Source of the DNA: Candidatus Hadarchaeales archaeon
GTDB taxonomy: Archaea; Hadarchaeota; Hadarchaeia; Hadarchaeales; Hadarchaeaceae
DNA: 64,000 bases
Reading direction: 5' to 3'
NCBI GenBank assembly: GCA_038823825.1
Contig: JAWBCC010000003.1
Coordinates: 69,351-133,350, forward strand
Below the pieces are notes generated by a model, which searched no databases, was not told the DNA's origin, and worked only from the letters and a program-made list of their open reading frames with translations. The position numbers and the translations under genes are program-made. This document shows positions 9,264 to 33,886 of the stretch, one piece after another. How positions within the stretch are numbered: the first letter of the stretch is position 1; every line of letters begins with the position of its first letter.

Positions 9264-10229
9264 TCACTTTTGGGTCTCGAAAATACATTCCTCAGGAGAT
9301 TTGTCTCTTCTTAGGCGCAAAAAAACAGGGGCTCTTAACTTGAGGTCATCAGTTACTTCTAGAAATCTCACCTCACAGACGAACTCTGGTCTAACCCATC
9401 GGACTTCGTAAGGTGGTTCCTCTTCAACTGGTTTTTCTGGAACTTCGATTTTTTTGAGTTCTGATGTGAGATATCTGATTGTTTCCTCATCAAATCCAGT
9501 TCCAACCTTCCCAAGGAAAATCAACTTTTCACGATCGTACGCTCCTATCGCAAGTGCTCCGAAGTAATCCTTCCGTTCTCCTTCCCCCGGCGTATAGCCC
9601 AAAATCACGCAGTCCATCGTCTTGAAAGTCTTGACCTTTATCCAATCCTCGCTTCTCTTCCCCTGCTGATAGGTGCTCTCGAGCTTCTTACCCATCACTC
9701 CCTCCAATCCCATCGCTTTTACGCTCTCCCACAGTCTTCTGCCATCCTCAGTATACATGCAGAGTCTCAGACGTTCGCTTTCTTTCACGATCTCTGAAAG
9801 TTTCTGCTTTCTTTCTCTGAGTGGTTTGTTTGTCATATCTTCTTCATTGGCAAGCAGAACGTCGAACGCGAAAATAACAGCCGGGTACATTTTGGAAAGT
9901 AGCTCTATTTTGAGTGGATGCTCCTGCTGTTCTCTAAGCTGCAAGAGTTGAAAATCTGGCTTGTTGTTTTTATCGAGCACAACGATCTCGCAGTCGAGAA
10001 TGCAGGGGTCGGCGAGGATGTTTCTGTGAATGCCTGAAAGTTCAGGATATCTGTGTTCAATCCACTTCTTTCTTCTGTTCAGAATTTTTATCCTCTCACC
10101 TTTTTTGTAAACGATCGCTCTTGTTCCGTCGAGCTTAGGTTCCCAGATGTAGTGGGGTTTGCTGAGATCATTTTCGCTTCCCAGCCTTGCAAGCATCGGG
10201 CTTATGATGGGTGGCCAGTCTGAGTTCAT
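9264..10229 (-). CDS. ligD: ATP-dependent DNA ligase, LigD ligase-domain type (NHEJ ligase)
   Basis: 321 aa with the KLDGTRAIVYKKG motif I (KxDG). Size matches a stand-alone LigD LigDom. It overlaps the upstream Ku gene by 4 nt (ATGA), which indicates an operon. Confidence 0.8.
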   Translation of the reverse strand: MNSDWPPIISPMLARLGSENDLSKPHYIWEPKLDGTRAIVYKKGERIKILNRRKKWIEHRYPELSGIHRNILADPCILDCEIVVLDKNNKPDFQLLQLREQQEHPLKIELLSKMYPAVIFAFDVLLANEEDMTNKPLRERKQKLSEIVKESERLRLCMYTEDGRRLWESVKAMGLEGVMGKKLESTYQQGKRSEDWIKVKTFKTMDCVILGYTPGEGERKDYFGALAIGAYDREKLIFLGKVGTGFDEETIRYLTSELKKIEVPEKPVEEEPPYEVRWVRPEFVCEVRFLEVTDDLKLRAPVFLRLRRDKSPEECIFETQK

Positions 10230-11044
10230 ACCTCGGTTACCTTCTTCTTTTCAGCGATTCGTAAACTCTCCTCTAGGGCTTTCATGAGATCCACGGTTGT
10301 CGGTGCTTCGGCCGGTTTCTCAAGTTTTATAGCAGCTCCTTCAGCCTTTCCTCTGATCAATTCGAGCAACGCTTCCCGGTATGCATCTTTAAGTTCCTCT
10401 GGTCTAAATTCTCCTTTCATCTGCTCTATCAGCTTTTTAGCAAGATCTCTTTCCCTATCCGAGGTTTCCGGAATTCTCTGGATTTCTGTCAGTTCATCTG
10501 TAGGAACGATTTCGTCGAAATAGTGAAGAAGGGTTAGATGAAGACAGTTCTGTCCGGGCCTTATCACAACCGGATATTCTTTATTCCGAAGGGTGAGCTT
10601 CCCGAGAGCAGCGGACCCTGTCTCTGCGAGAGCATGGAAAAGCAATCCATAAGCTCTCTCTCCACCCTCCTCGGGAGCGACGTAGTAATGCTCAGAGAAG
10701 TAAGTCACGTCTATGTCTCTAATTTCAATGAAATTCGAAATTTCAATGATTTTTGTGCTTTTAACTTTAATACCTTCCAATTCTTCTTCTGTTACTTCGA
10801 TAAACTTATCTTTAGCAAGCTCGAATGCCTTTACGAGTTCTTCGTCTGCAAGTTCTTTCTGGCATTTTGTGCACCACTTCTTGTATTTTACCGGTGTTTT
10901 GCACTCCTTGTGAATTAGATGAAATGAGATAGACTTGTCTCTCGTTGCTTTGTAAAGCTTGACGGGTATGTTGACGAGACCGAAAGATATTGCTCCTCTC
11001 CAAATTGCTCTAGGCATATCCTTCCCCCAAAAGAAACCTTCCAA
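10226..11044 (-). CDS. ku: Ku DNA end-binding protein
   Basis: N-terminus MPRAIWRGAISFGLVNIPVKLYKATRDKSISFHL is the canonical prokaryotic Ku start. 272 aa with an acidic/basic C-terminal tail. Confidence 0.85.
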   Translation of the reverse strand: MEGFFWGKDMPRAIWRGAISFGLVNIPVKLYKATRDKSISFHLIHKECKTPVKYKKWCTKCQKELADEELVKAFELAKDKFIEVTEEELEGIKVKSTKIIEISNFIEIRDIDVTYFSEHYYVAPEEGGERAYGLLFHALAETGSAALGKLTLRNKEYPVVIRPGQNCLHLTLLHYFDEIVPTDELTEIQRIPETSDRERDLAKKLIEQMKGEFRPEELKDAYREALLELIRGKAEGAAIKLEKPAEAPTTVDLMKALEESLRIAEKKKVTEV

Positions 11045-16806: not shown

Positions 16807-17916
16807 ATGAAAAGAGTGGGTGTTGCGGAGCTTCCTCTTCATGGCGGGAAATGTCCTCCTTGGCTTTTCGGCAGGATGAAGAGACTTGGGGGCGCTATTG
16901 CGGAGCTCATCGTCAGAGAGTACGGGAGGAAGGAGTTTCTCCGCAGGCTGGGAGATCCGTTTTTCCTCCAGTCTCTTGGTTGTGTTTTGGGTTATGATTG
17001 GCATAGCTCTGGTTTGACGACTGTGACGATGGGTGCTCTTAAAGAGGCACTTGCTGAGAGGGATCTTGGGATAGTCGTCTGCGGCGGAAAGGGTCTGGTT
17101 TCAAGGAGGACGCCGGACGAGATAGAGAAGGTTGCGGAGAAGTTCTCTTTCTCGACCGCGGAGAAGGAGAGGCTGAAGTATGCGAGTAGGATGGTTGCGA
17201 AGGTGGACAATGCTTGTGTTCAGGATGGATATCAGCTTTACCATCATACTTTCGTTTTGAGTGAGGATGGGGACTGGGCGGTTGTTCAGCAGGGGATGAG
17301 GGAGAAGTTTGCTAGGCGGTATCATTGGATATCGGAGGGTTTGAAGAGCTTCGTGGAGGAGCCGCATTCGGGGATAGCTGGAGAGAGAAAGGAGGATGTT
17401 GTTTTGGATATGACGGCTGAGGAGAGCGAAGAGGCGAGGAAGACGAGCGTGGATTTGGTGAGGGAGAACCCGAGGAGACTTCTCTCTTATGTTAGGGGTG
17501 CGGAGCAGAAGCTTTTGGATGAGTATCTGGAGAAGAAGCCGGAGGTTAAGGTTCTTCTCATGCCTGCGGGGCACAGGATATCGGAGTTGACGGAAAAGAC
17601 GATTGCGGCGCTTAAGAGGGCTTACGAGATTCAGCCTGAGAATTATGAAGAGCTAGTGGCAATAAAGGGAATTGGTCCGAAGGCGATAAGGGCTCTTGCT
17701 CTTGTCTCAGCGGTTATCTATGGGAAGCCGCCATCTTGGAAGGATCCTGTGAGGTATAGCTTCGCGCATGGAGGGAAGGACGGGATTCCGTATCCTGTTG
17801 ATAGGAAAACATATCAGACGACGATCGAGATTCTCGAAGAGGCGATAGAGGGAATGGAAGCTGGGAAGGAGGAGAAAATCCGAGCTCTTCGGAGACTTCA
17901 CGAGTTTGTTGGGTAG
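16807..17916 (+). CDS. DUF763 family protein
   Basis: N-terminal MKRVGVAELPLHGGKCPPWLFGRMKRLGG is the signature start of DUF763 (PF05559) proteins. 369 aa. Confidence 0.55.
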   Translation: MKRVGVAELPLHGGKCPPWLFGRMKRLGGAIAELIVREYGRKEFLRRLGDPFFLQSLGCVLGYDWHSSGLTTVTMGALKEALAERDLGIVVCGGKGLVSRRTPDEIEKVAEKFSFSTAEKERLKYASRMVAKVDNACVQDGYQLYHHTFVLSEDGDWAVVQQGMREKFARRYHWISEGLKSFVEEPHSGIAGERKEDVVLDMTAEESEEARKTSVDLVRENPRRLLSYVRGAEQKLLDEYLEKKPEVKVLLMPAGHRISELTEKTIAALKRAYEIQPENYEELVAIKGIGPKAIRALALVSAVIYGKPPSWKDPVRYSFAHGGKDGIPYPVDRKTYQTTIEILEEAIEGMEAGKEEKIRALRRLHEFVG

Positions 17917-18337
17917 TGCACAGCTGTGCATAATTTCGCTTCATTCACAAATTTGACTAGGGTTGAGTTCACAGCTGTGCATTCCCTTATAAACCGCTTT
18001 CAACTGATGGATCGGTGGGAGTGCACAGCTGTGCACGGTCGAGTAATTCTTTTCACGTGGGAGCTTAAGGAGAGCTCAAAATCTCGGCGTTGGTTTTACG
18101 CAAATCTCAGGCGACTGCTGGATGAGCTTCCGCGAAACAGCTGGTGTAAACTTGGGGGTTCGGTCTATCTCGTGGAAAAACGATATTCTGTGAGATTTCT
18201 AATGCTTCTCAAAAAGTTTGAAGGACCGGAACTAACGTGGTATTCGTTCGAGATAGTGCGTCAGGTTTGAGTTCACAGCTGTGCACAACGCCCCCGCTGA
18301 TCACGGGAAATCCCACCACAGCAGTGCACAGCTGTGC
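17917..18337. repeat. Array of five ~21-bp direct repeats, each ending in a perfect 14-bp palindrome T(G/T)CACAGCTGTGCA. They fall in two phased groups.
   Basis: Copies at 17917-17930, 17968-17981, 18022-18035, 18272-18285 and 18324-18337. Each is preceded by GGTTGAG/GGTGGGAG/GGTTTGAG-like flanks. Spacings are 51, 54 and 52 bp within groups. A 250-bp gap between the groups holds the body of a small ORF. Confidence 0.75.
18007..18270 (+). CDS. Hypothetical small protein (87 aa from the internal ATG) embedded in the palindrome array
   Basis: ORF track 17926..18270. The first 27 codons of the GTG-start version run through repeats 1-2 and are likely non-coding. The core RVILFTWELKESSKSRRWFYANLRRLLDEL...GGSVYLVEKRYSVRF has a beta-alpha pattern that loosely recalls Cas2/VapD-like ferredoxin folds. 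This is a weak pattern match only. Confidence 0.3.
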   Translation: MDRWECTAVHGRVILFTWELKESSKSRRWFYANLRRLLDELPRNSWCKLGGSVYLVEKRYSVRFLMLLKKFEGPELTWYSFEIVRQV

Positions 18338-18388
18338 ATAGTTTCGTGTGCGTAAATTCTAAAAATCGGTGAATAGATGTAGAAATGG

Positions 18389-18479
18389 GCCCGCGGTAGC
18401 TCAGCTTGGTAGAGCGGCCGGCTGTAGACCCGTCGGCCGAAACCGGCATGTCGGGAGTTCAAATCTCCCCCGCGGGACC
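18389..18479 (+). tRNA. tRNA-Tyr (anticodon GTA) with a ~14-nt intron at the canonical 37/38 position
   Basis: Acceptor CCCGCGG/CCGCGGG. D arm GCTC...GAGC. Anticodon stem GCCGG with loop CTGTAGA gives GTA. The 3' half of the anticodon stem (CCGGC) appears only after an inserted CCCGTCGGCCGAAA. T arm GGGAG-TTCAAAT-CTCCC. CCA encoded. Confidence 0.8.
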
Positions 18480-18502
18480 ATGAGTCCATTTCAATCGCCT
18501 GC

Positions 18503-19306
18503 TTAAGGATGACTGGAGAACACTGGAATCGGGGCCGCTTTCGTACACTTTTCCCGATATCCGCACGCACCACATTTTTCAGCTTTTCTGGTCGGTTTGG
18601 CGTTTCTTCTTTCCTCCCAAAACGGTATCGCCCATTCAAGCTTTTCGATTGCGCTTTCCAGCGAGAAGGGGTACATCCAGACCACTAGTCCAGGAATGTC
18701 GAGATCAACCGGTTCTTTTTTATACAGTTCAGGTATGCTCAGCATGCATATTGTCTGGTTGAGACTCTCGATCTTTTCTCTGTTCAGATCGTGTGGTGCT
18801 ACAGAGATGGCGTATCTCAGCTCAGAAGTTTCGAAGCCAAGGTCATGGAGAAGATATCCGTAAACCAGAGCCTGAACGTGATAACTCGGAAAAATCTTCG
18901 GCTTTCTGGAAAACTTGTATTCGATGAGCAGCGTGGGTTTTCTGCGCCTGAAGAGTATATAGTCCGGTCTACCTGCGATTACGCATTCCCGGTACTTTCC
19001 GAGTAGAAGCATAGAAGCCCCAACCGTTGGCTTTTGAAATATGTCTCTCCAGAGATCCTCTCTTTTTACAGGAATCATGCCGGAAAGAGTCAGTTCATGC
19101 TTTTCATCACCCTTTTCCATTTCTTGGGTCTGAATCTTCCCGTAGGTGTATTTGAGTTCCACTTTTTTCTCGCAATAAAACTGTTCTGCTATCTCCGAGG
19201 CATTCACAAAATGTAGTCCAAAGCGGAGCCTTTTTTTACTCTCTTTTGCTTCCTCCAGCAATGACATAAATCTTCTAAACGGTTTCCACCTTTTCATGGA
19301 ACCCAC
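18503..19306 (-). CDS. Cas4-family (DUF83) PD-(D/E)xK nuclease with a 4-Cys Fe-S cluster. It stands alone; no CRISPR array or other cas genes are in the window.
   Basis: N-terminal Cys in SEIAEQFYCEKK. Nuclease motifs GRPDYILF (D), LLIEYKFS (ExK) and YHVQALVYGYLL (QxxxY). C-terminal CGACGYREKC supplies three more Cys. Confidence 0.7.
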   Translation of the reverse strand: MGSMKRWKPFRRFMSLLEEAKESKKRLRFGLHFVNASEIAEQFYCEKKVELKYTYGKIQTQEMEKGDEKHELTLSGMIPVKREDLWRDIFQKPTVGASMLLLGKYRECVIAGRPDYILFRRRKPTLLIEYKFSRKPKIFPSYHVQALVYGYLLHDLGFETSELRYAISVAPHDLNREKIESLNQTICMLSIPELYKKEPVDLDIPGLVVWMYPFSLESAIEKLEWAIPFWEERRNAKPTRKAEKCGACGYREKCTKAAPIPVFSSHP

Positions 19307-19388
19307 AAAACTAAATTAGGGTTTTGTCATAAAATACGCTTGGGCAGTTAACAAGATCCCACAAACGAGAGTAGTTTTTTAAATTTCG

Positions 19389-19826
19389 TTGTTTATAAAG
19401 GAGCTTCATTCAATCAGCTTGTGGGTTGTTTTGTCAGGTGTTCGGATATCATCGCCGCATGACATATTTGCTCTCGTAAAAGGAGATTTCTCGAATGATA
19501 GCGAAAAGGTGGAGCTTGTAATGCTAGATTCGATGTGCAACGTTCTCGCAAAGGAAATTGTTTCCGAGGGAAGCGAGAACTCGGCTCCCCTCCATCCCCG
19601 TCAAGTGCTTGCCGTGGCTCTTCGATATCCGACGGTTTTCATTGTTCTTGTTCATAACCATCCGAAAGGTTGTGTGGAACCCAGCGAGGAGGATATAGAG
19701 GTAACGAGGAAAATTGCAAAGGCTGGAAAAATGGTTGGCGTTTACCTACTCGATCACCTGATAATTGGGAATGGGAAATTCTTTAGTTTCCTTCAGCAAG
19801 GTCTAATTTCTCCTTCAATTAGATAA
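19389..19826 (+). CDS. RadC-like JAB/MPN domain protein
   Basis: JAMM-type motif VLVHNHPKGCVEPSEEDIEVTRKIAKAGKMVGVYLLDHLII (HxHPxG...S..D) typical of RadC/DUF2466. Divergently transcribed from the Cas4-like gene. TATA-like boxes lie in the 80-bp spacer. Confidence 0.75.
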   Translation: MFIKELHSISLWVVLSGVRISSPHDIFALVKGDFSNDSEKVELVMLDSMCNVLAKEIVSEGSENSAPLHPRQVLAVALRYPTVFIVLVHNHPKGCVEPSEEDIEVTRKIAKAGKMVGVYLLDHLIIGNGKFFSFLQQGLISPSIR

Positions 19827-19864
19827 GCAGAAATTAAAGCTGCTTATCAGATAAGTTTATATGC

Positions 19865-21646
19865 ATGAAAGAAGAAAATTATAAGATTAATTTGGCAAAA
19901 AGAATCGACAGATGGCTAGAAAATAGGCGAATTTTGCTCATGAAAACTTTTGGGACTAGAGAATTTACCCGTAGAGAAGCTACAGATGTCCTAAAAGAAA
20001 AATTTGGTGATGATGAGAAAGCAGTTGCTGCAGTTCTCTCGGAGTTAAAGCATGCTGGTTATCTCGAGATGAGACCGGATCCTACTGACGCCAGGAAAAC
20101 GATATACTGCCTAAAAGAAGTCAAGATTCTCAAGCCTGAAACAGAGGAGCTGACAAGGGATGAGCTAGAATCGCTCCTAAAAAGAGCCGCGGATCTCATA
20201 CGAACTCGTGTTGATTACAAGTTCATTCTCATTCTGCTCTTTCTCAAGAGAATAAGTGATAAGTGGGAGATGGAGTTTAAACAGGTTTACGAGCAGCTTC
20301 TCCGGAATGGACTTTCGGAGGAAGAAGCCGAGGAGGAAGCTAAGAGCAGCATCTACCACGAGTTTGATTTGCCTGAGAAGTTCCTTTGGGAAAACCTTCG
20401 CAAAGATGTGGCTAGACTCCCGGAGAGACTCGCTGAATGTCTCAAAACCCTCGCCGAACGCAACCCGGAGTTGAAGGATGTGGTGGATAGGGGAGATTTT
20501 CTCCAGTTTGCGAGAAGTTCGGAAAATGCGGAGATTTTGAGGCAGCTTGTTGAACTCTTCAGTTCTCGCAAGCTCCACCACGTTTCTCCCGATGTGCTCG
20601 GAGACGCGTATGAATGGGTTTTGAGGTACTTTGCTCCGGAAAAGGCGAAAGAGGGAGAAATCTACACACCAAGGGAGGTCATAAAACTGCTCGTTGAGAT
20701 TTTGAATCCGAAATCTGGAGAATCTGTTTATGATCCAGCGTGCGGATCGGGTGGAATGCTCATTTTGTCGTTCAAGAATGTGGAGGAAAAGGAGGGGAGG
20801 GAGGCAACCCGAAAGCTCTCCTTGTACGGACAGGAGGCAAACCGGGAGATTTTCGCTCTCTGCAAAATGAATATGTACATCCACGATATTAGGGATGTCA
20901 ACATTGAGTGGGGTGATACGCTTCTCTATCCAAAGTTCATTGAGGGGAACAGGCCAAAGACTTTCGACGTTGTGATGGCGAATCCACCTTGGAATCAGGA
21001 TGGTTATCACGAGGAGGTTCTGAAGAAGGGAGAGTTCTGGGGAGAGAGGTTTGTCTACGGTTTCCCGCCCAAACAGTCTGCGGACTGGGCATGGATTCAG
21101 CATATGCTGGCTTCCGCCGACGGGAAAAACGGAAGGGTTGGGGTTGTTATAGACAACGGTTGTCTGTTCAGGGGAGGGAAGGAGCGGGCAATAAGGGAGA
21201 GGGTGCTGAGAGATGACCTGCTGGAGTGCGTGATCCTTCTGCCGGAGAAGCTCTTTTATAACACCGGAGCCCCGGGAGCCATTCTGATTTTCCGTAAACA
21301 TAAGCCAGCCGAGAGGAAGGGGAAGATCCTGTTCATTAACGCGAGCCAGGAGTATGAGAAGCATCCAGAGGTGAGGAAGCTGAACAGGCTTGGGGAGGCA
21401 AACATAAGGAAGATCGCTGAGGCCTACAGGAACTTCAAGGATGTTGAGGGTTTCGCCAGAGTGGTTTCGCTGGGGGAGGTGAGGGAGAACGATTACAATC
21501 TAAACGTCACGCTGTACGTCTTTCCGGAGGAGAAGGTCGAGGAGATAGACGTGGCGAAGGAGTGGGAGGAACTCCGCAAGATTGAGAAGGAAATTACAGA
21601 GGTTGAGGAGAAGATTCAGGGATATTTGAGGGAGGTTGGAGGTTAA
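19865..21646 (+). CDS. hsdM: Type I restriction-modification system methyltransferase subunit HsdM
   Basis: N6-adenine MTase motifs DPACGSGGML (motif I) and ANPPWNQDGY (motif IV, NPPW). Typical N-terminal HsdM domain. 593 aa. Confidence 0.9.
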   Translation: MKEENYKINLAKRIDRWLENRRILLMKTFGTREFTRREATDVLKEKFGDDEKAVAAVLSELKHAGYLEMRPDPTDARKTIYCLKEVKILKPETEELTRDELESLLKRAADLIRTRVDYKFILILLFLKRISDKWEMEFKQVYEQLLRNGLSEEEAEEEAKSSIYHEFDLPEKFLWENLRKDVARLPERLAECLKTLAERNPELKDVVDRGDFLQFARSSENAEILRQLVELFSSRKLHHVSPDVLGDAYEWVLRYFAPEKAKEGEIYTPREVIKLLVEILNPKSGESVYDPACGSGGMLILSFKNVEEKEGREATRKLSLYGQEANREIFALCKMNMYIHDIRDVNIEWGDTLLYPKFIEGNRPKTFDVVMANPPWNQDGYHEEVLKKGEFWGERFVYGFPPKQSADWAWIQHMLASADGKNGRVGVVIDNGCLFRGGKERAIRERVLRDDLLECVILLPEKLFYNTGAPGAILIFRKHKPAERKGKILFINASQEYEKHPEVRKLNRLGEANIRKIAEAYRNFKDVEGFARVVSLGEVRENDYNLNVTLYVFPEEKVEEIDVAKEWEELRKIEKEITEVEEKIQGYLREVGG

Positions 21647-22301
21647 ACAAATGAAAAGATCAAATGATGAGATTCGCGAGTTAATTCTAAGAGAATTATA
21701 TGAAGTTCACAAAAAAGCTAGGAGTCTAAAAGCCACGGGAAAAAGCATAAGCGAGTTGAAACGCCAACTTAAGAAGCAATATGGACTAAGTGAAAAAGAA
21801 ATTGTGCCCAATCTTGATTTTTTAATCCAATGCGGTTGGGTAAAGGTAGAGAAAGAAACATCCGAGTTTAAAACTCCAAGAGGGTTTATAAAGAAACAGG
21901 AGAAAGGTATCTTCAAAATTTCAGATATGGGTATCAACTATTTTGAAGGACAATCCAAATTCCAAAGGATAGAGAGATCGCTTGCTGGTATAAACATAAC
22001 TAATATAGGTGGGGTCACAGTCTTAGGGGACGGAAATGTAGTTGTAAATGTAAACTATGTTGATTTATACAAAGAACTGTCTATGCTTTCAGAGATCATA
22101 AGAAAAAGTGATCAACTCAAAGATGTTGACAAATTAAACTACATCGCGGAAATTGAAACAATAAAATCCCAGTTGATGAAACCGGAACCTGACAAGAACA
22201 TAATAAAGCAAGCTTGGGAAAAACTAAAGCCACTTGCAACTATTGCTGGCATAGCTTCGTTTTTCGAGCGAGTTGTTAAATTAATGGGGGCATTGTTTTG
22301 A
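21636..22301 (+). CDS. Uncharacterized 221-aa protein embedded between hsdM and hsdS (N-terminal wHTH-like region, C-terminal coiled-coil/Gly-rich region)
   Basis: Overlaps hsdM by 11 nt and hsdS by 4 nt, so it is translationally coupled inside the R-M operon. Very AT-rich coding sequence. No recognizable catalytic motif. Confidence 0.5.
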   Translation: MEVKQMKRSNDEIRELILRELYEVHKKARSLKATGKSISELKRQLKKQYGLSEKEIVPNLDFLIQCGWVKVEKETSEFKTPRGFIKKQEKGIFKISDMGINYFEGQSKFQRIERSLAGINITNIGGVTVLGDGNVVVNVNYVDLYKELSMLSEIIRKSDQLKDVDKLNYIAEIETIKSQLMKPEPDKNIIKQAWEKLKPLATIAGIASFFERVVKLMGALF

Positions 22302-23563
22302 AAACCGGTTACAAACAAACGCCAATCGGTAGTATCCCGAAGGAGTGGGAGGTTGTCAGGCTTGGGGATATTTCTAAGGTATCTTCGGGGAATACAGCAC
22401 CGCAAGATAAAAAATATTTTGAAAATGGGAAATATCCTTTCATAAGAGTTCAGCACCTTAGTACATTGCTAGAAAATAAATATCCTATTATTTGCGATTT
22501 TGTAAATGACTTGGCTGTTGAGGAACTCAAATTGAAAAAATTCAAGAAAGGTTCTATAATATTTCCGAAAAGCGGGGAGTCTATAAGGCTTGAAAAAAGG
22601 GCGATACTAAGAGAGGATTCCTATGTGGTAAACCACTTAGTTGTTGTCGAAGTTTTTTCAAATAACGTAGATACAAACTTTTTATATTATTATTTGTCAA
22701 GCCTCAGAACAAGTAGTTACCTTTCTAAAACTACAATGCCATCACTCAATCTTTCAGTCATTAAATCATTTTTAATCCCCCTCCCACCCCTCCCCGAGCA
22801 ACGTAAGATCGCCGAGATCCTCTCAACAGTCGACCAAGCCATCCAGAAGGTGGACGAAGCCATAGCCCGGACTGAGAGGTTGAAGCGTGGGCTGATGCAG
22901 AGGCTGCTCACCCGGGGTATAGGGCACAGGGAGTTCAAGGACACGGAGATAGGGAGGATTCCGAGGAAGTGGGAGGTTGTCAGGCTTGGAGACAAAAAAA
23001 TTACAGAAGAACTTTTCTACGGTATAACCGCTAAAGCTGTCGATAAGGATACTGGAGTAAAAATGTTGAGAACTACGGATATCAAAGAGTATTCTGTGGA
23101 CTGGGAAAAACTTCCTTTTTGTGAAATCACTGAAAGGAGGGGTAACTTAACTAGATATCTTCTGAAGAAAGGAGACCTGATTGTAGCAAGGGCTGGAACT
23201 GTGGGCGTTTCTATTCTTGTGGATAGAGATTTTGACAACGTGATTTTCGGATCATATCTGATAAAAGTGAAGCTAAAACCAAGCATACATCCAAAATTTG
23301 TTCACTATTTCTTCCAATCCTCACTTTATTGGAAACACCTGCAAAAGGCTCAAGGAAGTACTTTAAAAAACGTAAACCTGCCTTTGTTAAAATCTCTCAA
23401 GATCCCCCTCCCACCCCTCCCCGAGCAGCGCAAGATCGCCGAGATCTTCTCAATCGTCGACAAAAAGCTCGAACTCGAAAGAAAAAGGAAGGAAAAACTC
23501 GAGCGGATCAAGAGGGGTCTGATGAACGATTTGCTCACCGGGAAAAAGAGGGTGAAGATATGA
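22298..23563 (+). CDS. hsdS: Type I R-M specificity subunit HsdS (two target-recognition domains)
   Basis: Duplicated conserved segments: IGSIPKEWEVVRLGD and IGRIPRKWEVVRLGD open the two TRDs. LIPLPPLPEQRKIAEILSTVD and KIPLPPLPEQRKIAEIFSIVD form the central and C-terminal conserved coiled-coil regions. Confidence 0.85.
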   Translation: MKTGYKQTPIGSIPKEWEVVRLGDISKVSSGNTAPQDKKYFENGKYPFIRVQHLSTLLENKYPIICDFVNDLAVEELKLKKFKKGSIIFPKSGESIRLEKRAILREDSYVVNHLVVVEVFSNNVDTNFLYYYLSSLRTSSYLSKTTMPSLNLSVIKSFLIPLPPLPEQRKIAEILSTVDQAIQKVDEAIARTERLKRGLMQRLLTRGIGHREFKDTEIGRIPRKWEVVRLGDKKITEELFYGITAKAVDKDTGVKMLRTTDIKEYSVDWEKLPFCEITERRGNLTRYLLKKGDLIVARAGTVGVSILVDRDFDNVIFGSYLIKVKLKPSIHPKFVHYFFQSSLYWKHLQKAQGSTLKNVNLPLLKSLKIPLPPLPEQRKIAEIFSIVDKKLELERKRKEKLERIKRGLMNDLLTGKKRVKI

Positions 23564-24534
23564 TTGACCAACATTTGGAAAAAGAAAGAGTGATCGTGGA
23601 CGAAAAATTAAAACAAAATGAAGAGACCAAAGTATACGAAATTTTTCGTGAAGTTATGAAGAGTTATCTCGGAGTAGAAATAGAAAAAGAAAAGGCAGGA
23701 CGAATTTTAGAATTTTTCATGACAGTAATGTATAACTTGACTTTGAATCCAAGCGCCATCGTTAGAGGGTACTACCTTTGCGCAGAGCAAGATTATGAAG
23801 CCGCTAAGTTATTGAGTAAAAAATTTCCCTCCCTCGCCGTTTTTCATTTACAACAGACCGTAGAAAAAATAACTAAAGCTTACGCGCTCCACATGGGATT
23901 GATAAAAGAAGAAGAATCGTATAAAAAACGAGGAAATAAAGTCGGGACCGAAGTTGTTGGTCATATCTCACCTAAGGCTTTTATTTTGTTGTTGAAGAAA
24001 AGAGGCGCTGCAGAATTCGTCGATACGGTTTTTCTTGCATGTCCAGAAATTCCCAAAATAACTGTTAAAGAAGTTCTTCAAAAATTCGAAAAATTACTAC
24101 AAAAAACGGATGAATTGGCAAAACTCTCAAAAAATGAAATAAACCATTTTATAAAAAGATGCGAAGACATCCAAGACGCCATTAGAAAAATTGACATCAG
24201 GAAAACAAGGGAAAATTTCAAACGCCTCAAAGTAGGGTTTATTGCAAGACTAAGATCTGCGGTTTCACCAGAGATAGTTGAAGATATCAAGAAAAAATTT
24301 AACGCGATAGAAAGGAAGATCGGTTCAATAATCAATGAACTTCTAACGTTTTCGCAACTATATGCTCTGGCGATAATCACCTTTCCGCACTTCTCCTACA
24401 GTCGATACCCTGGAGGCAAAATAACATTTGCTGACTATCACGAAGGGCTGGGTATAGTAGATTCTCTCGATGATATTTTGATCTCTATCGGTTCTATTAT
24501 GAAAAGTCTAGAAAAAATTTGTGCGAGAGGGTGA
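23560..24534 (+). CDS. HEPN-like domain protein (324 aa) inserted between hsdS and hsdR, in the PrrC position
   Basis: Start ATG at 23560 overlaps the hsdS stop (ATGA). AEQDYEAAKLLSKKFPSLAVFHLQQTVEKITKAYALHMG matches the PF05168-type HEPN N-terminal helix pattern (A..D...A..LL..g.y..a.f.a.Qa.EKalKA). A C-terminal SRYPGG recalls the HEPN RYPd motif but sits after an unusually long ~200-aa insert. Confidence 0.4.
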   Translation: MIDQHLEKERVIVDEKLKQNEETKVYEIFREVMKSYLGVEIEKEKAGRILEFFMTVMYNLTLNPSAIVRGYYLCAEQDYEAAKLLSKKFPSLAVFHLQQTVEKITKAYALHMGLIKEEESYKKRGNKVGTEVVGHISPKAFILLLKKRGAAEFVDTVFLACPEIPKITVKEVLQKFEKLLQKTDELAKLSKNEINHFIKRCEDIQDAIRKIDIRKTRENFKRLKVGFIARLRSAVSPEIVEDIKKKFNAIERKIGSIINELLTFSQLYALAIITFPHFSYSRYPGGKITFADYHEGLGIVDSLDDILISIGSIMKSLEKICARG

Positions 24535-24536
24535 AA

Positions 24537-27500
24537 ATGCCAATCTTTACCGAAAAATCCACTGTTGAAAGCTACATCATAGAAAAGCTGAAGGAAAAAG
24601 GCTGGAAGCATGTTCCCGGAGAAGAATTAGAGCGAGAAGACTACTCCGAACCGCTTTTGGTGAGGCATCTTCTTGAAGCAATCCACAGAATAAACCCCCA
24701 CCTAACCCTGACAAAAAAGGATCTGGACAGAATTCTGCTAGAACTCAGGAGCCTTCCATCCACATTTGATGGTTCCAAGCGACTGCTCAAGTTCCTAAAA
24801 GAAGGAATCCCAATAGAACTGGAAAAAACAGGAGAACTCAGATATGTCTCTCTGCTCGATTACGAAAACCCAAAGGAGAAAAACGAGTTCATCGTAAGCG
24901 ACCAAGTACCTTTCCACGGGCCTAAAGAAAGATGTAGACTTGACATAGTCCTCTACGTAAACGGAATCCCGCTTGTAGCAATAGAGTGCAAAAACCCGAC
25001 CGACCCGACCAGAGACTGGGAAACTGCCTATAAACAGATAAAATCTTACGAAAAGGCTGTCCCAGAACTCTTCAAGTATGTCCAGTTCAGCATAGCCGCC
25101 GCCGCGACCACCAGATATTTCCCGAACGTCTTAGGAGCCGAGGATGTCAAAATCTACTTCCCTAAAGGGAAAGATACTCCCGAGTCCCTGGATCGAACAC
25201 TTGACCTCCTCCTAAATCCAGACGCTCTCCTCGATCTTGTTGCAAACTTCATTTTCGCGAGGGAAGAGCATGGAAAGTTCACAAAAGTTTTGCCCTACTA
25301 CTACCAGTACGAAGGCGCCAACCAAATCTACCAAAGAGTCCTTAACAACCTGTCTGAGAAGGAAAAAAAAGAGAAGGGGTTGATCTGGCATTGGCAGGGT
25401 TCCGGAAAAACCCTCACGATGATTTACGCCGCCCGTAAACTTTACCTTTGCCCCCTGCTTGAAAACCCCACCATCTTCTTCGTCGTCGACAGAGAGGAGC
25501 TTGAGGAGCAACTGTTTAAAGAATTTTCTTTCTTAGACCTCGGCATACCCTCACCTGAGGTCATTTCTTCGATCGAGCACCTCCGTCAGATTCTGACCTA
25601 TGACGAGGGAAGAGGAAAGAGGGGGATGTTCATCACTCTCATTCACAAGTTCGGCGAAAAGCTTGCCGATCTCGTTTTTGAGGACAAGGACATGAAAAAC
25701 ATTTCAAACAGGAGAAACGTCATCGTTTTAATAGACGAGGGACATCGGACGCAGTACGGAGAGTATGCCGGCCGTATGCGAGGCATACTCAAGAAAGCTT
25801 TCTTCTTCGCTTTCACGGGAACTCCTTTCTCCACGAAAAAGAGAGATACCTTCGCCGCTTTTGCTTATCCCGAGGAGGGCGAACTCTATCTTCACAAATA
25901 TTTTGTCCGAGAATCAATTGAAGACGGTTTTACCCTCCCCATTGTTTTCCAGACTAGGATGGAAAAAGAGGTCGGCCTAGAAAAAGAACTACTGGAAGAG
26001 TTTTTGGAGCAAGAGCTGGAGGAAATCACCGAAGAATCCCTCCGCCTCGCCCTAGAAGGAAAAATCAGCAGACGATTGACCCAGATCGTTGTATTCTTTG
26101 AGAATCCAGAAAGAATAGAAAAGATTGCCAGCGATATCGCCACTCATTTCAAGGAAAACGTGGACGGAAAGTTCAAAGGCATGGTTGTGGCGGCTTCAAG
26201 AAAAGCGTGCATCTATTATAAGGAGGCTCTCGATCGGCTGCTGGGACCGGAATACTCCGAGATTGTTATGACGTTCAATCCTCGCACGGACCCCGAACCG
26301 ATCAAATCCTATTACGAAAAGTTGAGGCAGAAATATCATGGCAAGGAGATTGAGGAAATCTGGGATGAGATAATCGAGAAGTTCAAAGAAAGGGAATATC
26401 CGAAAATTTTAATCGTCACGGACAAACTTCTGACAGGTTTTGATGCTCCAATTCTCCAAGTGATGTATCTAGACAAGCCGCTGAAGGAACATAGGCTTCT
26501 TCAAGCAATAGCAAGAACCAATCGTCCATTCAAAGAACTAAAACCAGCGGGTCTCATCATAGACTATGTCGGAATTCTCAAAGAATTCGAAAAAGCCGTG
26601 GCCATTTACGAAAAGCAGGATATTCAGTACGTAGGCTTCAAGCCGGAAGAAAAGATAGATGAGCTTCGAAAGCTTATCAGCGATGCGGAGGAGACCCTTG
26701 AGGGTGTGGATAAAACAAAAACCGATTTTGAAACTCTTAAAGCCGCAGCAAAACTGCTCTTTCATTATCCAGAAAAGCAGAGAAAATTCTCCCAAACGTA
26801 CAAACAGGCTAGAAATCTTTACGAGTTTCTTCTCCCCTTCGGGCTGGACAAGAAGACTGTGGAGAGATTCAAATGGCTGGCCGCAGTCTACAACTTTCAT
26901 CGCCAATGGGTGGAGCAGGAGAAGTCAGAGGAAATGGAAGAAAACTTTAGAAAATTCTATCCAAGAGTTGTTGAGCGCGTTCACAAGGCCATCCAAATAG
27001 AAATGAAAGAAGAGTTTCCAAGTTTAACGCTTGATAAAGAATATCTTGAACGGTTGGGCAGATTGGGTTTAGAAGACCAAGTTTATAACATGGTTTTCGG
27101 TCTAAACAAATATATCCGCGTAGACCGTCCGTTCAGTCCTATTTATGAACCAATCGCCAAACGCGTGGAAAAACTAGTTGAAAGGTGGCGAAACAAAAAG
27201 ATTTCGGTCGAGGAGGCTTATAACGAAGCAGTTTCCATTTTGCAGGAAACGAGAAAAACCGAGGAGAGAATAAAAACGCTCGGATTCTCAGAGCCAGAAT
27301 ACTTCATTCTCAAAGTTCTTGAAAAGGAACTGGGAGAATCTGAGGATCTAGTCCAAGAAGTCCGGAGTCTCTGGAGAAAATGGGAGAAGACTGGAAAAAT
27401 ATTCCCAGGATGGACTCGAAAAATGAGTATCCTAAAGGAACTCGTGCGAGATATAAGAATGTTCATGGTAAAGAAAGGTATCCCACTTAAAAGGAGGGAA

Positions 27501-27545
27501 GAGCTCTGTGAGGAGATCATCAACGGACTCAAGGCCACTTCATAA
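24537..27545 (+). CDS. hsdR: Type I R-M restriction subunit HsdR (SF2 helicase/endonuclease)
   Basis: Walker A WQGSGKT, DEAH-box VLIDEGHRTQ, helicase C-terminal motifs (QAIARTNR), ~1000 aa. Start taken at the ATG at 24537 (MPIFTEK...). Confidence 0.9.
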   Translation: MPIFTEKSTVESYIIEKLKEKGWKHVPGEELEREDYSEPLLVRHLLEAIHRINPHLTLTKKDLDRILLELRSLPSTFDGSKRLLKFLKEGIPIELEKTGELRYVSLLDYENPKEKNEFIVSDQVPFHGPKERCRLDIVLYVNGIPLVAIECKNPTDPTRDWETAYKQIKSYEKAVPELFKYVQFSIAAAATTRYFPNVLGAEDVKIYFPKGKDTPESLDRTLDLLLNPDALLDLVANFIFAREEHGKFTKVLPYYYQYEGANQIYQRVLNNLSEKEKKEKGLIWHWQGSGKTLTMIYAARKLYLCPLLENPTIFFVVDREELEEQLFKEFSFLDLGIPSPEVISSIEHLRQILTYDEGRGKRGMFITLIHKFGEKLADLVFEDKDMKNISNRRNVIVLIDEGHRTQYGEYAGRMRGILKKAFFFAFTGTPFSTKKRDTFAAFAYPEEGELYLHKYFVRESIEDGFTLPIVFQTRMEKEVGLEKELLEEFLEQELEEITEESLRLALEGKISRRLTQIVVFFENPERIEKIASDIATHFKENVDGKFKGMVVAASRKACIYYKEALDRLLGPEYSEIVMTFNPRTDPEPIKSYYEKLRQKYHGKEIEEIWDEIIEKFKEREYPKILIVTDKLLTGFDAPILQVMYLDKPLKEHRLLQAIARTNRPFKELKPAGLIIDYVGILKEFEKAVAIYEKQDIQYVGFKPEEKIDELRKLISDAEETLEGVDKTKTDFETLKAAAKLLFHYPEKQRKFSQTYKQARNLYEFLLPFGLDKKTVERFKWLAAVYNFHRQWVEQEKSEEMEENFRKFYPRVVERVHKAIQIEMKEEFPSLTLDKEYLERLGRLGLEDQVYNMVFGLNKYIRVDRPFSPIYEPIAKRVEKLVERWRNKKISVEEAYNEAVSILQETRKTEERIKTLGFSEPEYFILKVLEKELGESEDLVQEVRSLWRKWEKTGKIFPGWTRKMSILKELVRDIRMFMVKKGIPLKRREELCEEIINGLKATS

Positions 27546-28269
27546 AGTGCTGAGGATAGAAGGAGAAAGCATACCTTATACTGTCGAATGGAGGAAAGTG
27601 AAATATCCGCGTTTGGAACTGAAAACCGGGAAGCTAAAGATAATTCTTCCAAAAGGAGTAAAGGACGAAACACCCATTCTGGAAAGAAATCTCCAGTGGA
27701 TACTTAAAAGGCATGAAGAAATCAAGAGGGCAAAGGAGAACATAGCAAACTCCTTGAGCGGAAATGGGATTCTCATCTTCGGCTCTTTCTATAAAGTCGA
27801 GCCGGGCATACCCCTCGTCATTTTCCTGAACGGGATACAGAAAAAGTTCGACCTGATGAAAGAAAGAGACCAGGTTAAACTAAGAAACTTTCTAAAAAAG
27901 ATTCTGAGAGAGGAGCTGAGGAAGTTAGTGAACCACTATTCATCAAAATTTGGTCTGAGATTCGGAAGAATATACATAAGAAACCAGAAAACAAAATGGG
28001 CAAGTTGTTCCTCCTCGGGTAACCTGAGCTTTAACTTCCGGCTTGTTCACGTACCATATGATATTTTAAAGTATGTTGTCTGTCATGAGGTTCTTCACCT
28101 AGCTGAAAAAGGTCATTCGAAAAAATTCTGGGAAAAAATCAGAGAGGAGTTTCCAAACTACAAAGAGATGGAGAAAAAACTTTTCGAATACTGGTTTTTC
28201 ACGATGGATTCCCAATTTCCAGATATTCGTTTTATTGGAAAGCGAAAAACCTCAAGAAATTTGGAATGA
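27508..28269 (+). CDS. DUF45/YgjP-like (WLM/SprT-like) zinc metallopeptidase, commonly linked to type I R-M hsdR
   Basis: HExxH motif in VVCHEVLHLAEKGHSKKFWEKI. Size and placement immediately after hsdR (overlapping its 3' end) are typical of this family. Confidence 0.7.
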   Translation: MRRSSTDSRPLHKVLRIEGESIPYTVEWRKVKYPRLELKTGKLKIILPKGVKDETPILERNLQWILKRHEEIKRAKENIANSLSGNGILIFGSFYKVEPGIPLVIFLNGIQKKFDLMKERDQVKLRNFLKKILREELRKLVNHYSSKFGLRFGRIYIRNQKTKWASCSSSGNLSFNFRLVHVPYDILKYVVCHEVLHLAEKGHSKKFWEKIREEFPNYKEMEKKLFEYWFFTMDSQFPDIRFIGKRKTSRNLE

Positions 28270-28293
28270 AAAAGACAGAGAAACCTTCAAACA

Positions 28294-28330
28294 TTAGGCA
28301 AACCTAACTTTTTATGTTAGGCTCACCTAA
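28294..28330. promoter_or_regulatory. Two DtxR/IdeR-type iron-box half-palindromes (TTAGG-N4-CCTAA) bracketing a TATA-like box upstream of dtxR-feoB
   Basis: TTAGGCAAACCTAA at 28294-28307 and TTAGGCTCACCTAA at 28317-28330, with CTTTTTATG between them. Compare the classical DtxR box TTAGGTTAGCCTAACCTAA. Confidence 0.5.
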
Positions 28331-28338
28331 TTTTCTCG

Positions 28339-32615: not shown

Positions 32616-32804
32616 ATGAGGCTGAAAGGACCGAAGTGCATGATCTGTGGGGAGAAGATACAGATAATGAGTATGGACTCGGCCTACGTGAAGTTTGTTA
32701 GACCTGGCGAAGCCAAAGGAATCTTCATCTGCTGGAAGTGTGCTGAAAAGGAGTTCGGCGAAGTCCTGCAGGATATCCTGACAAAGGTCGCTGGTAAGGG
32801 GTGA
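32616..32804 (+). CDS. Small zinc-ribbon protein (62 aa, CxxC...CxxC), translationally coupled to the downstream AEP gene
   Basis: CMICGEK...CWKCAEKE. Stop overlaps the start of the next gene by 4 nt. Confidence 0.45.
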   Translation: MRLKGPKCMICGEKIQIMSMDSAYVKFVRPGEAKGIFICWKCAEKEFGEVLQDILTKVAGKG

Positions 32805-33886
32805 TCTCCTTGACGGTCACTCCCCAAGATCACATCCTGATGACCCTAGCCATCAAAAGGATAGGAAAATTCGTAGATCTCGAACACATAAGGGAAAAGC
32901 TCTGCAGGGACGGAGGAAGGGATTTCTCTCTGGAAGAGACGAAGATGCTTTTAGATTCATTGATCGGAAAGGGTCTCGTGCAGGAGAAAGGAGGGGAGTA
33001 CGCTCTCACGGAAAAGGGCCGCGACTTTTTCGAGAAAAGATGGAGAGAAGTTAAAGATCATCTGAATCAAGACTATCTAAAGGTCTACCGGGCAAAGCGA
33101 TATTACCCCCATGTTTCTAAAACCATCCTAGAGTTCTGCAAGGACAGATACGTTTCAGTTTTCAGGCTCTTTACAGACCGTGCCTGGCTTCAAAGGAAAC
33201 TCGGTCCCCGCTGGATAACGATAAAGAGCGAGGACGACATACAATACTGGCTGGACATTCACGGCATCGATTTCATCCCCTACATTCACAGAATTGGAAG
33301 CGATAGGCCCGACTGGCTCGTCATAGATTTTGACGCCGGAAAGAAAGTAGAGTTCGAGCAGACGAAGAAGGTTGTCATGACAGCCGCCGAAGTTTTACAT
33401 AATTACGGAATCGAGGTTGCGTTGAAGTTCAGCGGTTCCCGTGGCTTCCAGCTTTGGGCGGTTTTCGAGCCTCACGATCTGCCGACAGATTACCAACCAA
33501 AAAAGCTGAAAACGGAACGCAGGGAACGAAACTTTTTCACCTTTTACTCGGATATCATAAGATTTGTCGAAAGCAGAGTAGCGAAAAAACTCCCGAATCT
33601 CACAACCTCGGAAACGGCGAAAAAAGAAGAGAGGGAAGACAAAGTCCTCCTCGACGCCTCCATAATAAAGCCGATGGGAGACGTCAGGGCTCCCTATTCC
33701 ATGCATCACCGAACTGGTCTCATTTCCATGCCAGTGGGTTTAGATGAGCTAGAGGAATTCGAACCCAAGCAGGCAGATCCAGATCTTGTCGTTCAGCGCT
33801 ATAGGAAAAGGGGAAACGAATTTAAGCTCAAGCCTTGTGATGGTTCAAAGTTGTTCGAAGATTTGGTCAAATGGTGCAAAGAGTAA
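32801..33886 (+). CDS. Archaeo-eukaryotic primase (AEP) superfamily primase-polymerase of the LigD PolDom / NHEJ-polymerase type, with an N-terminal winged-helix domain
   Basis: Motif I LVIDFDAG (hhhDhD). Motif II FSGSRGFQLWAVF (SGxxGxH-like, with Gln where His is usual). Motif III LLDASIIKPMGDVRAPYSMHHRTGLISMPV matches the PolDom pattern D.S....G...APYS...R.G..S.P. The N-terminal ~100 aa is wHTH-like. Confidence 0.65.
   Translation: MISLTVTPQDHILMTLAIKRIGKFVDLEHIREKLCRDGGRDFSLEETKMLLDSLIGKGLVQEKGGEYALTEKGRDFFEKRWREVKDHLNQDYLKVYRAKRYYPHVSKTILEFCKDRYVSVFRLFTDRAWLQRKLGPRWITIKSEDDIQYWLDIHGIDFIPYIHRIGSDRPDWLVIDFDAGKKVEFEQTKKVVMTAAEVLHNYGIEVALKFSGSRGFQLWAVFEPHDLPTDYQPKKLKTERRERNFFTFYSDIIRFVESRVAKKLPNLTTSETAKKEEREDKVLLDASIIKPMGDVRAPYSMHHRTGLISMPVGLDELEEFEPKQADPDLVVQRYRKRGNEFKLKPCDGSKLFEDLVKWCKE

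Follow-up and report, generated by a model that had tools for sequence, protein, structure and literature searches.

Must a cluster of defence genes that begins at the 3' end of a tRNA gene have been integrated there? The question is raised by a stretch of 64,000 nucleotides from a Candidatus Hadarchaeales archaeon, uncultured and from a hot spring (GenBank assembly GCA_038823825.1, contig JAWBCC010000003.1; 'the window' denotes this whole stretch). Here the gene order 3' of tRNA-Tyr is Cas4-like nuclease, RadC/JAB protein, hsdM, orf216, hsdS, a gene for a HEPN protein (orf324), hsdR and a YgjP/DUF45 peptidase, after which come a DtxR-FeoA gene and then a FeoB gene. An earlier note on this DNA had described the block as an AT-rich island of about 10 kb, inserted at the tRNA 3' end and perhaps old and degraded. 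Our comparison with other strains leads to a different reading, namely that this is probably a long-resident, strain-variable Hadarchaeales defence locus with an intact type I restriction–modification (R-M) operon at its core, and not a recognisable tRNA-integrated element. In kind the locus is an ordinary example of something known, a type I R-M operon with embedded genes in a variable defence island; its points of interest are a four-allele polymorphism that includes a relic-bearing deletion, and a conserved two-slot archaeal operon.

Four alleles of one locus, including a deletion scar

Conspecific metagenome contigs and metagenome-assembled genomes, recovered by exact-protein look-ups with the DtxR, Cas4-like, orf216 and orf324 proteins, are 99.2–99.9% identical in shared DNA (comparison loci carry L numbers). 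They represent four alleles with common breakpoints at 18505/18506, 22372/22373, 24535/24536 and 28232/28233. Allele A, found in the window, L021/22 and L023, has an HsdS with two target recognition domains (TRDs) and the 324-residue HEPN gene. Allele B (L002, L025/28, L026 and L029-32) is the same as the window up to 22372 and rejoins it at 24536, with a half-size HsdS of 208 residues, bearing another TRD, and a 280-residue HEPN gene in between. In allele C (L024), a gene for an AAA_15/AAA_21 ATPase directly follows hsdM in place of orf216. What is replaced as cassettes is the content of the space between hsdM and hsdS (slot 1: orf216 or the AAA ATPase), that of the space between hsdS and hsdR (slot 2: two divergent HEPN genes) and the TRDs of hsdS (full or half size); hsdM and hsdR are 99.2–99.9% identical among the conspecific strains. 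The interior of the operon thus serves as a two-slot site of cassette exchange. Defence-type genes are thus clustered and variable between strains at one fixed chromosomal position, as the PADLOC and Pfam assignments and the four alleles show, which makes the locus a defence island and bears out the defence-gene cluster of the earlier note.

In the fourth allele, a scar of 127 bp stands in place of positions 18506–28232. It is seen in two independent contigs that run from the tRNA side through to the dtxR side: L001 (ENA ERZ27245617) and L020 (JGI 3300008000), the latter a second copy of the empty allele and the single contig returned by a metagenome scan with the tRNA/left-junction sequence. 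Two samples each contain both a filled and an empty allele (L001 with L029 in ERZ27245617, L020 with L025 in JGI 3300008000), confirming that the content of the block is accessory. Several assemblies break exactly at 18506 or 28233, the pattern expected where a junction is polymorphic.

The scar, together with the shared flank directly after it, holds three relics in the order and orientation of the occupied locus: from the Cas4-like gene, the stop codon and about the first 13 codons (50 nt, ~90–92% identical), a 30-nt inner fragment of ygjP (window 27816–27844, 90–93% identical) and the last 12 ygjP codons, which are part of the shared flank. With these remains of two genes of the block, the empty allele must derive from an occupied locus by deletion, and the absence of the block is, as judged from these relics, derived and not ancestral. 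No relic-free unoccupied site was found among the conspecific contigs, the only empty allele (L001, L020) being the one with relics. The Cas4-like relic has diverged by ~8–10%, compared with 0.3–0.5% for the flanks, and is therefore either old or derived from a diverged allele.

An apparent frameshift in hsdS of L021 (300 + 120 residues), considered as a case of phase variation, turned out to be a 10-N scaffold gap. The locus is flanked on one side by genes for an ATP-dependent DNA ligase and for Ku, and on the other by a gene for a LigD-type Prim-Pol (9264–11044 and 32801–33886; Pfam). The set looks like archaeal non-homologous end-joining genes, and Ku/LigD end joining could, speculatively, explain the patchwork of the deletion scar.

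An intact type I operon with foreign relatives

HsdM has an N6-adenine methyltransferase domain with AdoMet motif I (DPACGSG, residue 281) and the catalytic NPPW (residue 364); HsdS has two TRDs parted by conserved repeats, the type I arrangement; and HsdR combines an N-terminal PD-(D/E)XK nuclease with an SF2 translocase motor (D136...E150-C-K152, GSGKT and DEGH; PF04313, PF18766, PF22679 and PF11867). With these motifs, the operon is predicted to encode an intact type I R-M system. The Cas4-like protein likewise keeps D112...E126-x-K128, together with Cys42 and C242-x2-C245-x5-C251 (an iron–sulfur cluster motif). The RadC/JAB protein has an intact HNHPKGCVEPSEED motif (HxH-x7-S-xx-D metal site), as expected of a RadC-like JAB protein, and YgjP joins the DUF45 domain to HEVLH at residue 193, the HExxH of zincins. 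Every catalytic signature checked is thus intact, so the genes are not degraded as had been supposed, and Pfam agrees with the gene content listed earlier (Cas4-like, RadC/JAB, type I R-M with two inner genes, DUF45).

In type I systems, the M2S complex methylates host target sites, the R2M2S complex translocates and cuts unmodified incoming DNA, and TRD replacement changes specificity. With their different TRDs, co-existing strains would restrict different DNA, and by analogy the half-size HsdS of allele B should dimerise and recognise a symmetric bipartite site. A 63-nt direct repeat within hsdS (22775–22837 and 23402–23464; the copies are 90% identical) corresponds to the conserved regions in the centre and at the C terminus of the protein, and is a plausible substrate for the TRD deletion or exchange that yields a half-size hsdS such as that of allele B.

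The peptidase gene ygjP overlaps the hsdR stop and lies directly 3' of hsdR in five of five operon contexts (window, L033, L034/35, L042/43 and L040), for which reason we count it as an operon member. Comparative-genomic surveys reportedly associate DUF45 with type I R-M, and here the association is drawn from these five contexts; a literature search for a link between DUF45/COG1451 and type I R-M gave nothing usable, the matches being to DUF450.

HsdM is 77% identical to its homologue in a host whose flanking genes have a G+C content (GC) of 65–69%; with a homologue from a Bathyarchaeon of 35% GC it shares 62% identity. By comparison, a scan of a one-genome-per-species collection with DtxR returned a nearest match of 51% identity, from Hadarchaeales, the rest being distant Thermoplasmata. 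Judged by these identities, the R-M module has clearly moved between archaeal phyla, and the horizontal acquisition proposed earlier holds for this part of the block.

Base composition marks the exchanged cargo

The block as a whole has 43.1% GC and the DNA around it in the window 45.9%, with a standard deviation (SD) of 3.6% among 500-bp windows; the block thus does not form an AT-rich island of about 10 kb. A gene-level comparison of the island genes with 45 other open reading frames (ORFs) of the window, covering GC, GC at third codon positions (GC3) and synonymous codon choice, yielded three outliers among the eight: orf216 (GC 35.6%, z = −4.4, GC3 0.34), orf324 (GC 36.3%, z about −4, GC3 0.34) and ygjP (GC 39.8%, z = −2.6). 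The backbone is native-like: hsdM (48.9%), hsdR (44.8%), the Cas4-like gene (45.5%) and RadC (44.1%) lie within ~1–1.5 SD of the background in GC and synonymous codon choice, with one exception, the GC3 of hsdM (0.58, +2.0 SD). Within hsdS, the TRDs have 32% and 39% GC and the conserved regions 51–61%.

No other gene in the window has a GC as low as the two embedded genes, orf216 and orf324, and among 500-bp windows across the 64 kb the minimum lies at ~23.8 kb. The drop in GC that had drawn attention to the block is therefore real as a local dip with its minimum there, and is not due to chance, but it delimits only the inner cargo and ygjP, not a 10-kb island. Its size had been put at 32% against about 50%; the actual values are ~36% against 42–49% in the hydrogenase genes, 32% being reached only by the first TRD of hsdS. 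The AT-rich signal is a mark of exchanged cargo, not of insertion borders, and the atypical composition across a whole element that defines an integrative island is not seen. The native-like backbone does fit the old age suggested in the earlier note.

An ORF of 1,972 codons at 1110–7028, directly 3' of tRNA-Ala (1022–1099), has many NosD/right-handed beta-helix repeats along with Big_1, invasin and fn3 domains, and probably encodes a surface or S-layer-like protein. Local GC within it falls to 0.38–0.40 at 2–4 kb; a GC dip near a tRNA gene is thus not specific to islands in this genome.

The proposed integration at tRNA-Tyr

The variable segment begins 25 nt past tRNA-Tyr, and in this sense does lie at a tRNA 3' end; its other boundary falls within ygjP, 37 nt from the 3' end of that gene. 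Nevertheless, four of the five features that define a tRNA-targeted integrative island are lacking. No exact match of 13 nt or more to the tRNA region occurs elsewhere in the 64-kb window, nor did a fuzzy search with the tRNA 3' end (20–40 nt, up to 20% mismatch) find a match there, so that the partial direct repeat proposed near 28.2–28.4 kb is absent from that place and from anywhere in the window. Exact k-mers down to 10 nt, tried as candidate attachment (att) repeats, gave only chance matches and a stem shared with tRNA-Ala. No direct repeat flanking the block stands out, and two weak flanking inverted repeats (I3 and I4, 77–82% over 22 nt) were judged to be chance. The island contains no integrase or integrase fragment, every stretch of it being filled by an intact gene assigned elsewhere, and the precomputed Pfam annotations list no integrase for the genes of the flanking ~20 kb. 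Pfam, PADLOC and the repeat searches thus support the earlier remark that neither an integrase nor an att duplication is visible; together with a boundary 25 nt outside the tRNA and an empty allele that is a scar, they speak against the insertion at the tRNA 3' end that the same note had proposed.

Could a classical integrative island have entered at the tRNA-Tyr 3' end and later lost its integrase and att sites? We consider this unlikely. The window does resemble tRNA-linked integrative islands and archaeal integrated elements in its adjacency to a tRNA 3' end, in its accessory defence cargo and in its presence/absence polymorphism. Such an origin would also suit three further observations: a homologous R-M module at L033 has a Phage_integrase gene ~5.5 kb 3' of ygjP, a homologue of orf216 lies beside an integrase gene on a provirus-like contig, and the R-M proteins have nearer counterparts in other phyla than DtxR has anywhere in the one-genome-per-species collection. 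However, the window departs from these elements in having no integrase, no att sites and no direct repeat of the tRNA in the 64 kb, in a boundary that falls outside the tRNA, in a mostly native composition, native throughout the backbone, and in an empty allele that is a relic-bearing scar and not an attB site. Moreover, the homologous operons examined never lie beside a tRNA (none at the loci tested, L033–L035), and adjacency to a tRNA would arise by chance in ~7% of cases (a rough estimate from 4 tRNAs among ~55 intergenic gaps). The contig with the 51%-identical Hadarchaeales DtxR begins 607 bp 5' of dtxR and has a different gene there, with no tRNA on that short stretch.

The same operon in other archaea

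Gene order elsewhere suggests that the backbone is that of an archaeal operon lineage of the form hsdM, slot 1, hsdS, slot 2, hsdR, ygjP. A complete Bathyarchaeota genome (L033) has hsdM-orf223-hsdS-hsdR-ygjP, a high-GC lineage (L034/35) has hsdM-Fic-orf126-orf215-hsdS-HEPN315-hsdR-ygjP, and L040 has hsdM-hsdS-FokI-domain gene-hsdR-ygjP, so that slot 2 is elsewhere empty or holds a HEPN gene or a FokI-domain gene. The locus of L034 is orthologous to that of its sister species L042, with flanks 87–93% and backbone 83–87% identical and with both slots swapped: in slot 1, Fic, orf126 and orf215 stand against four genes (o75, o98, a PIN-like gene of 507 residues and o152), and in slot 2, HEPN315 stands against a 324-type HEPN. 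These operons occupy 6831–16570 in L034/L035 and 4354–14725 in L042/L043, with AAA_14/DUF4143 and HflX genes on either side. Between the two, hsdM differs in GC3 in its 3' part (0.81 against 0.61), which suggests that the exchange tract can reach into hsdM.

Slot cargo is AT-rich whatever the GC of the host. In L034, where the flanking host genes have 65–69% GC, the GC3 of hsdM, hsdR and ygjP is 0.81–0.86, against 0.36 for orf215, 0.48 for hsdS and 0.36 for HEPN315; in L042, cargo has a GC3 of 0.32–0.43 against ~0.87 for host genes, and the ATPase gene of allele C has 0.39 against 0.58 for the adjoining hsdM. Synonymous sites compared between the window and L034 are saturated alike for cargo and backbone (0.41–0.55 identity at conserved residues), so that shared recent ancestry does not explain the AT-richness of the cargo; for the same reason, synonymous-site identity did not discriminate as a sign of recent cargo transfer. 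The AT-richness reflects either repeated replacement from an AT-rich pool or a selected composition, for example one that limits expression.

The embedded proteins and their known counterparts

The orf324 product is predicted to be a PF05168-class HEPN-T protein of the AF0298 type with a helical insertion of ~160 residues. Its AlphaFold2 model (predicted local distance difference test score, pLDDT, 78.6; predicted template modelling score, pTM, 0.78) has the four-helix HEPN fold, and the sequence has the motifs of the family; Q98, Q99, E102, K103, H135, H277, R282 and Y283 are invariant in the family alignment, and an 'sRYP' element aligns to the archaeal HEPN protein ST0689. The canonical Rx4-6H RNase motif is absent from orf324. 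By analogy, the invariant H277-x4-R282-Y283 fits the alternative active site of the AF0298 type, for which a conserved histidine N-terminal to the arginine was described as a possible alternative (Anantharaman et al. 2013, PMC3710099). Compared with HEPN-T proteins of the AF0298/ST0689 type, orf324 is ~2.5 times longer (324 against ~125 residues) owing to the insertion, has an extra N-terminal helical region, lacks a minimal nucleotidyltransferase (MNT) partner and scores below the Pfam gathering threshold. The 280-residue HEPN protein of allele B, 25% identical to orf324, is a solid PF05168 match (E=2e-13).

The structure model of the 216-residue orf216 product (pLDDT 85.5) predicts a PadR/MarR-like winged helix at the N terminus and a bundle of helices at the C terminus. 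Although the protein has no Pfam model, the family is real: a word-indexed search found 142 homologues at 47–78% identity, those named being from Bathyarchaeia, Caldarchaeum and Hadarchaeales, and 587 cluster representatives were matched in a profile search, with E<=1e-10 for 350 of these. The C-terminal half (residues 125–217) weakly matches PADLOC PDC-M14B models (best E=3e-8), the PDC models having been built on genes that lie inside BREX, DISARM or type I R-M systems (10.1101/2024.01.29.577857). The likeness to the candidate PDC-M14 (gene B, 'guilt-by-embedding') is confined to this domain, and there is no PDC-M14A partner here; any function is putative in both cases.

Genes embedded in type I R-M operons are documented, among them PrrC, TgvAB and DarTG2/RptR (PMC11411939, PMC12255303, 10.1101/2024.01.29.577857), as are HEPN proteins in R-M operons, the HEPN-T family clustering with them (PMC3710099). 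The window shares with the Escherichia coli prr locus (hsdM-hsdS-prrC-hsdR), TgvAB of Vibrio cholerae VPI-2, DarTG2/RptR of enteropathogenic E. coli (EPEC) and Campylobacter Rlo the nesting of same-strand genes among hsd genes, and with such operons in general a slot between hsdS and hsdR for a nuclease-type effector, strain-variable cargo and a defence-island setting. It differs in its archaeal host, in having two slots and not one, in ygjP fixed after hsdR, in a slot 2 that holds a PF05168 HEPN-T without ABC ATPase or Rx4-6H, and in a slot 1 that holds an unannotated winged helix-turn-helix (wHTH) family. PrrC and RloC themselves are defined by an N-terminal ABC ATPase; orf324 has no ATPase domain and has only the position between hsdS and hsdR in common with them.

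Partners, passengers or core genes

By analogy with these systems, the HEPN-T protein would be a second-line RNase or RNA-binding effector coupled to R-M, PrrC-like without the ATPase domain, and orf216 would bind DNA and regulate the operon or act as its sensor. As a peptidase, YgjP may control one of the R-M components or process it. Separate from the operon, the Cas4-like nuclease and RadC/JAB would be passengers of the defence island.

Several points weigh against a resident R-M locus with coupled accessory proteins. The roles proposed for orf216, the HEPN protein and YgjP are all predictions based on fold, motif and gene order, and a HEPN protein without canonical Rx4-6H may be non-catalytic. 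Proteins of the orf216 type also occur alone and need not depend on R-M. One (orf217 at L036-38) sits in a defence island among PLD-nuclease, Mrr-NACHT-WD40 and SLFN genes, divergent from the PLD-nuclease gene. Another lies on the provirus-like contig L045 (IMG/VR UViG_3300044580_000541), which has a tyrosine integrase (642–2141), an HK97-type capsid gene and, ~2.3 kb 3' of the integrase gene, a full-length orf216 homologue of 37% identity (4441–5094); the family thus also travels on viruses. The native GC of hsdM and hsdR could reflect a donor of like GC instead of long residence, and an ancient integration at the tRNA is possible, the informative comparisons at the tRNA-Tyr/dtxR locus being conspecific, though no observation calls for it. 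Finally, all comparison sequences are metagenome assemblies, and because contigs break at the junctions, only the window, L021+L022 and L026 come near to spanning the locus.

A further reading, which we think quite unlikely, treats the embedded genes as selfish or regulatory passengers, such as a controller or a toxin-like addiction gene, that use a permissive co-transcribed site. The wHTH of orf216 is transcription-factor-like, its standalone relative is divergent beside the PLD-nuclease gene, RptR sets a precedent as a small protein that represses a type I R-M island (PMC12255303), and in MNT-HEPN modules the toxin is a HEPN-T protein (PMC3710099). On the other hand, no antitoxin or MNT partner is present, the cargo is always oriented with the operon through tight or overlapping junctions, and published embedded genes, once tested, have mostly proved to be defence systems (10.1101/2024.01.29.577857); as to orf216, moreover, this reading overlaps with the resident R-M locus that we prefer. 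It is very unlikely that the block is ancestral core-like DNA marked by a single recent deletion, with its low GC set by amino-acid or expression constraints: the relic-bearing deletion allele, the native backbone composition and the saturated synonymous sites of both cargo and backbone (AT-richness maintained, not freshly imported) would suit it, but within one species cargo is swapped for non-homologous or 25%-identical genes between flanks that are ~99.5% identical, allele C has an ATPase for orf216, the L034/L042 lineage shows like swapping, and the low GC3 of the cargo makes amino-acid composition alone insufficient.

If the resident R-M locus is accepted, one may go further and ask whether hsdM-wHTH(orf216)-hsdS-HEPN-T-hsdR-YgjP is an archaea-wide 'extended' type I R-M system in which the three accessory proteins are functional partners, a proposition that we hold to be rather doubtful. 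If true, the insertion-bearing HEPN-T would be a latent RNase, kept in check by the R-M complex and firing when a virus disables restriction, that is, a PrrC-like guard without ATPase. The orf216 family (about 590 cluster representatives) would sense DNA or set operon expression, YgjP would control HsdR proteolytically, and the host-independent AT-rich coding of the cargo would be selected to throttle the expression of a toxic effector.

More generally, a neighbouring tRNA and a GC dip alone do not make an integrated island. The population data portray a resident R-M operon whose interior is a site of cassette exchange and whose absence is a secondary deletion, and they provide a natural example, from an uncultured archaeal phylum, of within-population diversity in R-M specificity and embedded cargo. 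Two unstudied families that occupy the same slots across phyla, the orf216 wHTH family and the long HEPN-T variant, are flagged as candidates for archaeal defence.

Features of the locus and its surroundings

The coordinates are collected in Table 1. The Cas4-like nuclease has the D...ExK motif and the four cysteines (C...C-x2-C-x5-C) of the Cas4 pattern seen in Cas4 and RecB-like Exo5 proteins. It differs from Cas4 in its score against TIGR00372 (37.4 bits, cut-off 65), PF01930 being below threshold as well, in the lack of cas genes or of a CRISPR array anywhere in the window, which agrees with its earlier description as standalone, and in its defence-gene neighbours: its homologues adjoin TIR, PemK and R-M genes rather than cas operons. 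The RadC/JAB protein lacks the N-terminal part of full-length RadC, and the NCBIfam RadC models match in their C-terminal halves only, below cut-off. Neither gene accompanies the operon in L033, L034 or L042. At L040 (8001–16813), a homologue of the Cas4-like gene with 37% identity comes after a gene for a PemK toxin and is convergent to the type I R-M operon, a second co-occurrence of this Cas4-like family with the hsd-ygjP operon type.

Table 1. Positions of the features discussed, in window coordinates
Feature	Position	Strand	Size	Evidence and remarks
tRNA-Tyr (GTA)	18390–18480	+		ARAGORN; intact in all alleles, including the empty allele L001
Cas4-like PD-(D/E)XK nuclease	18503–19297	−	264 aa	Pfam PDDEXK_1 E=9e-5; PADLOC Cas4 E=6e-10
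Strain-variable segment	18506–28232		9,727 bp	blastn of conspecific loci against the window, alignment, relic analysis
RadC-like JAB/JAMM protein	19419–19826	+	135 aa	Pfam PF04002 E=5e-36
hsdM, type I methyltransferase	19892–21646	+		Pfam N6_Mtase (PF02384) E=1e-113, HsdM_N (PF12161); PADLOC MTase_I
orf216, slot 1 cargo (hsdM/hsdS)	21651–22301	+		No Pfam model; ends overlap or abut hsdM and hsdS
hsdS, specificity subunit	22298–23563	+	421 aa	Pfam Methylase_S (PF01420), two stretches, E=1e-51
Segment exchanged between alleles A and B	22373–24535	+		blastn breakpoints in L002, L025/28, L026, L029-32; L002 ORFs
orf324, HEPN, slot 2 cargo (hsdS/hsdR)	23560–24534	+		Weak HEPN match
hsdR, restriction/translocase subunit	24537–27545	+	1002 aa	HSDR_N, SWI2_SNF2, T1R_D3-like, T1RH-like_C; PADLOC REase_I E=5e-124
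YgjP-like (DUF45) zinc metallopeptidase	27508–28269	+		Pfam PF01863 E=2e-41
dtxR promoter region, two TTAGGC(A/T)NACCTAA boxes	28285–28335	+		Read from sequence; outside the variable segment, kept in every allele

ARAGORN gave tRNA-Tyr as 91 nt without flagging an intron. The sequence GCCGG-CTGTAGA/cccgtcggccgaaa/CCGGC implies a 14-nt intron at ~18428–18441, in the canonical 37/38 position, which places the organism among the archaea.

Between the DUF763 gene and tRNA-Tyr, at 17915–18346, lie five copies of a palindrome, (A)GTGCACAGCTGTGCA(C), spaced by 51, 54, 250 and 53 nt; it occurs nowhere else in the 64 kb, where none is expected by chance. The copies overlap a doubtful ORF of 114 codons (17926–18270), and their number varies, conspecific L024 lacking 18016–18083. 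Operator sites are one possible explanation, a small repeat element another.

On the other side, the boxes just 5' of the dtxR-feoA fusion gene resemble DtxR/IdeR-type operators, and suggest autoregulation of dtxR-feoB. A similar TTAGGTTAACCTAA box stands 5' of dtxR in the other Hadarchaeales locus (L011, about 545–560).

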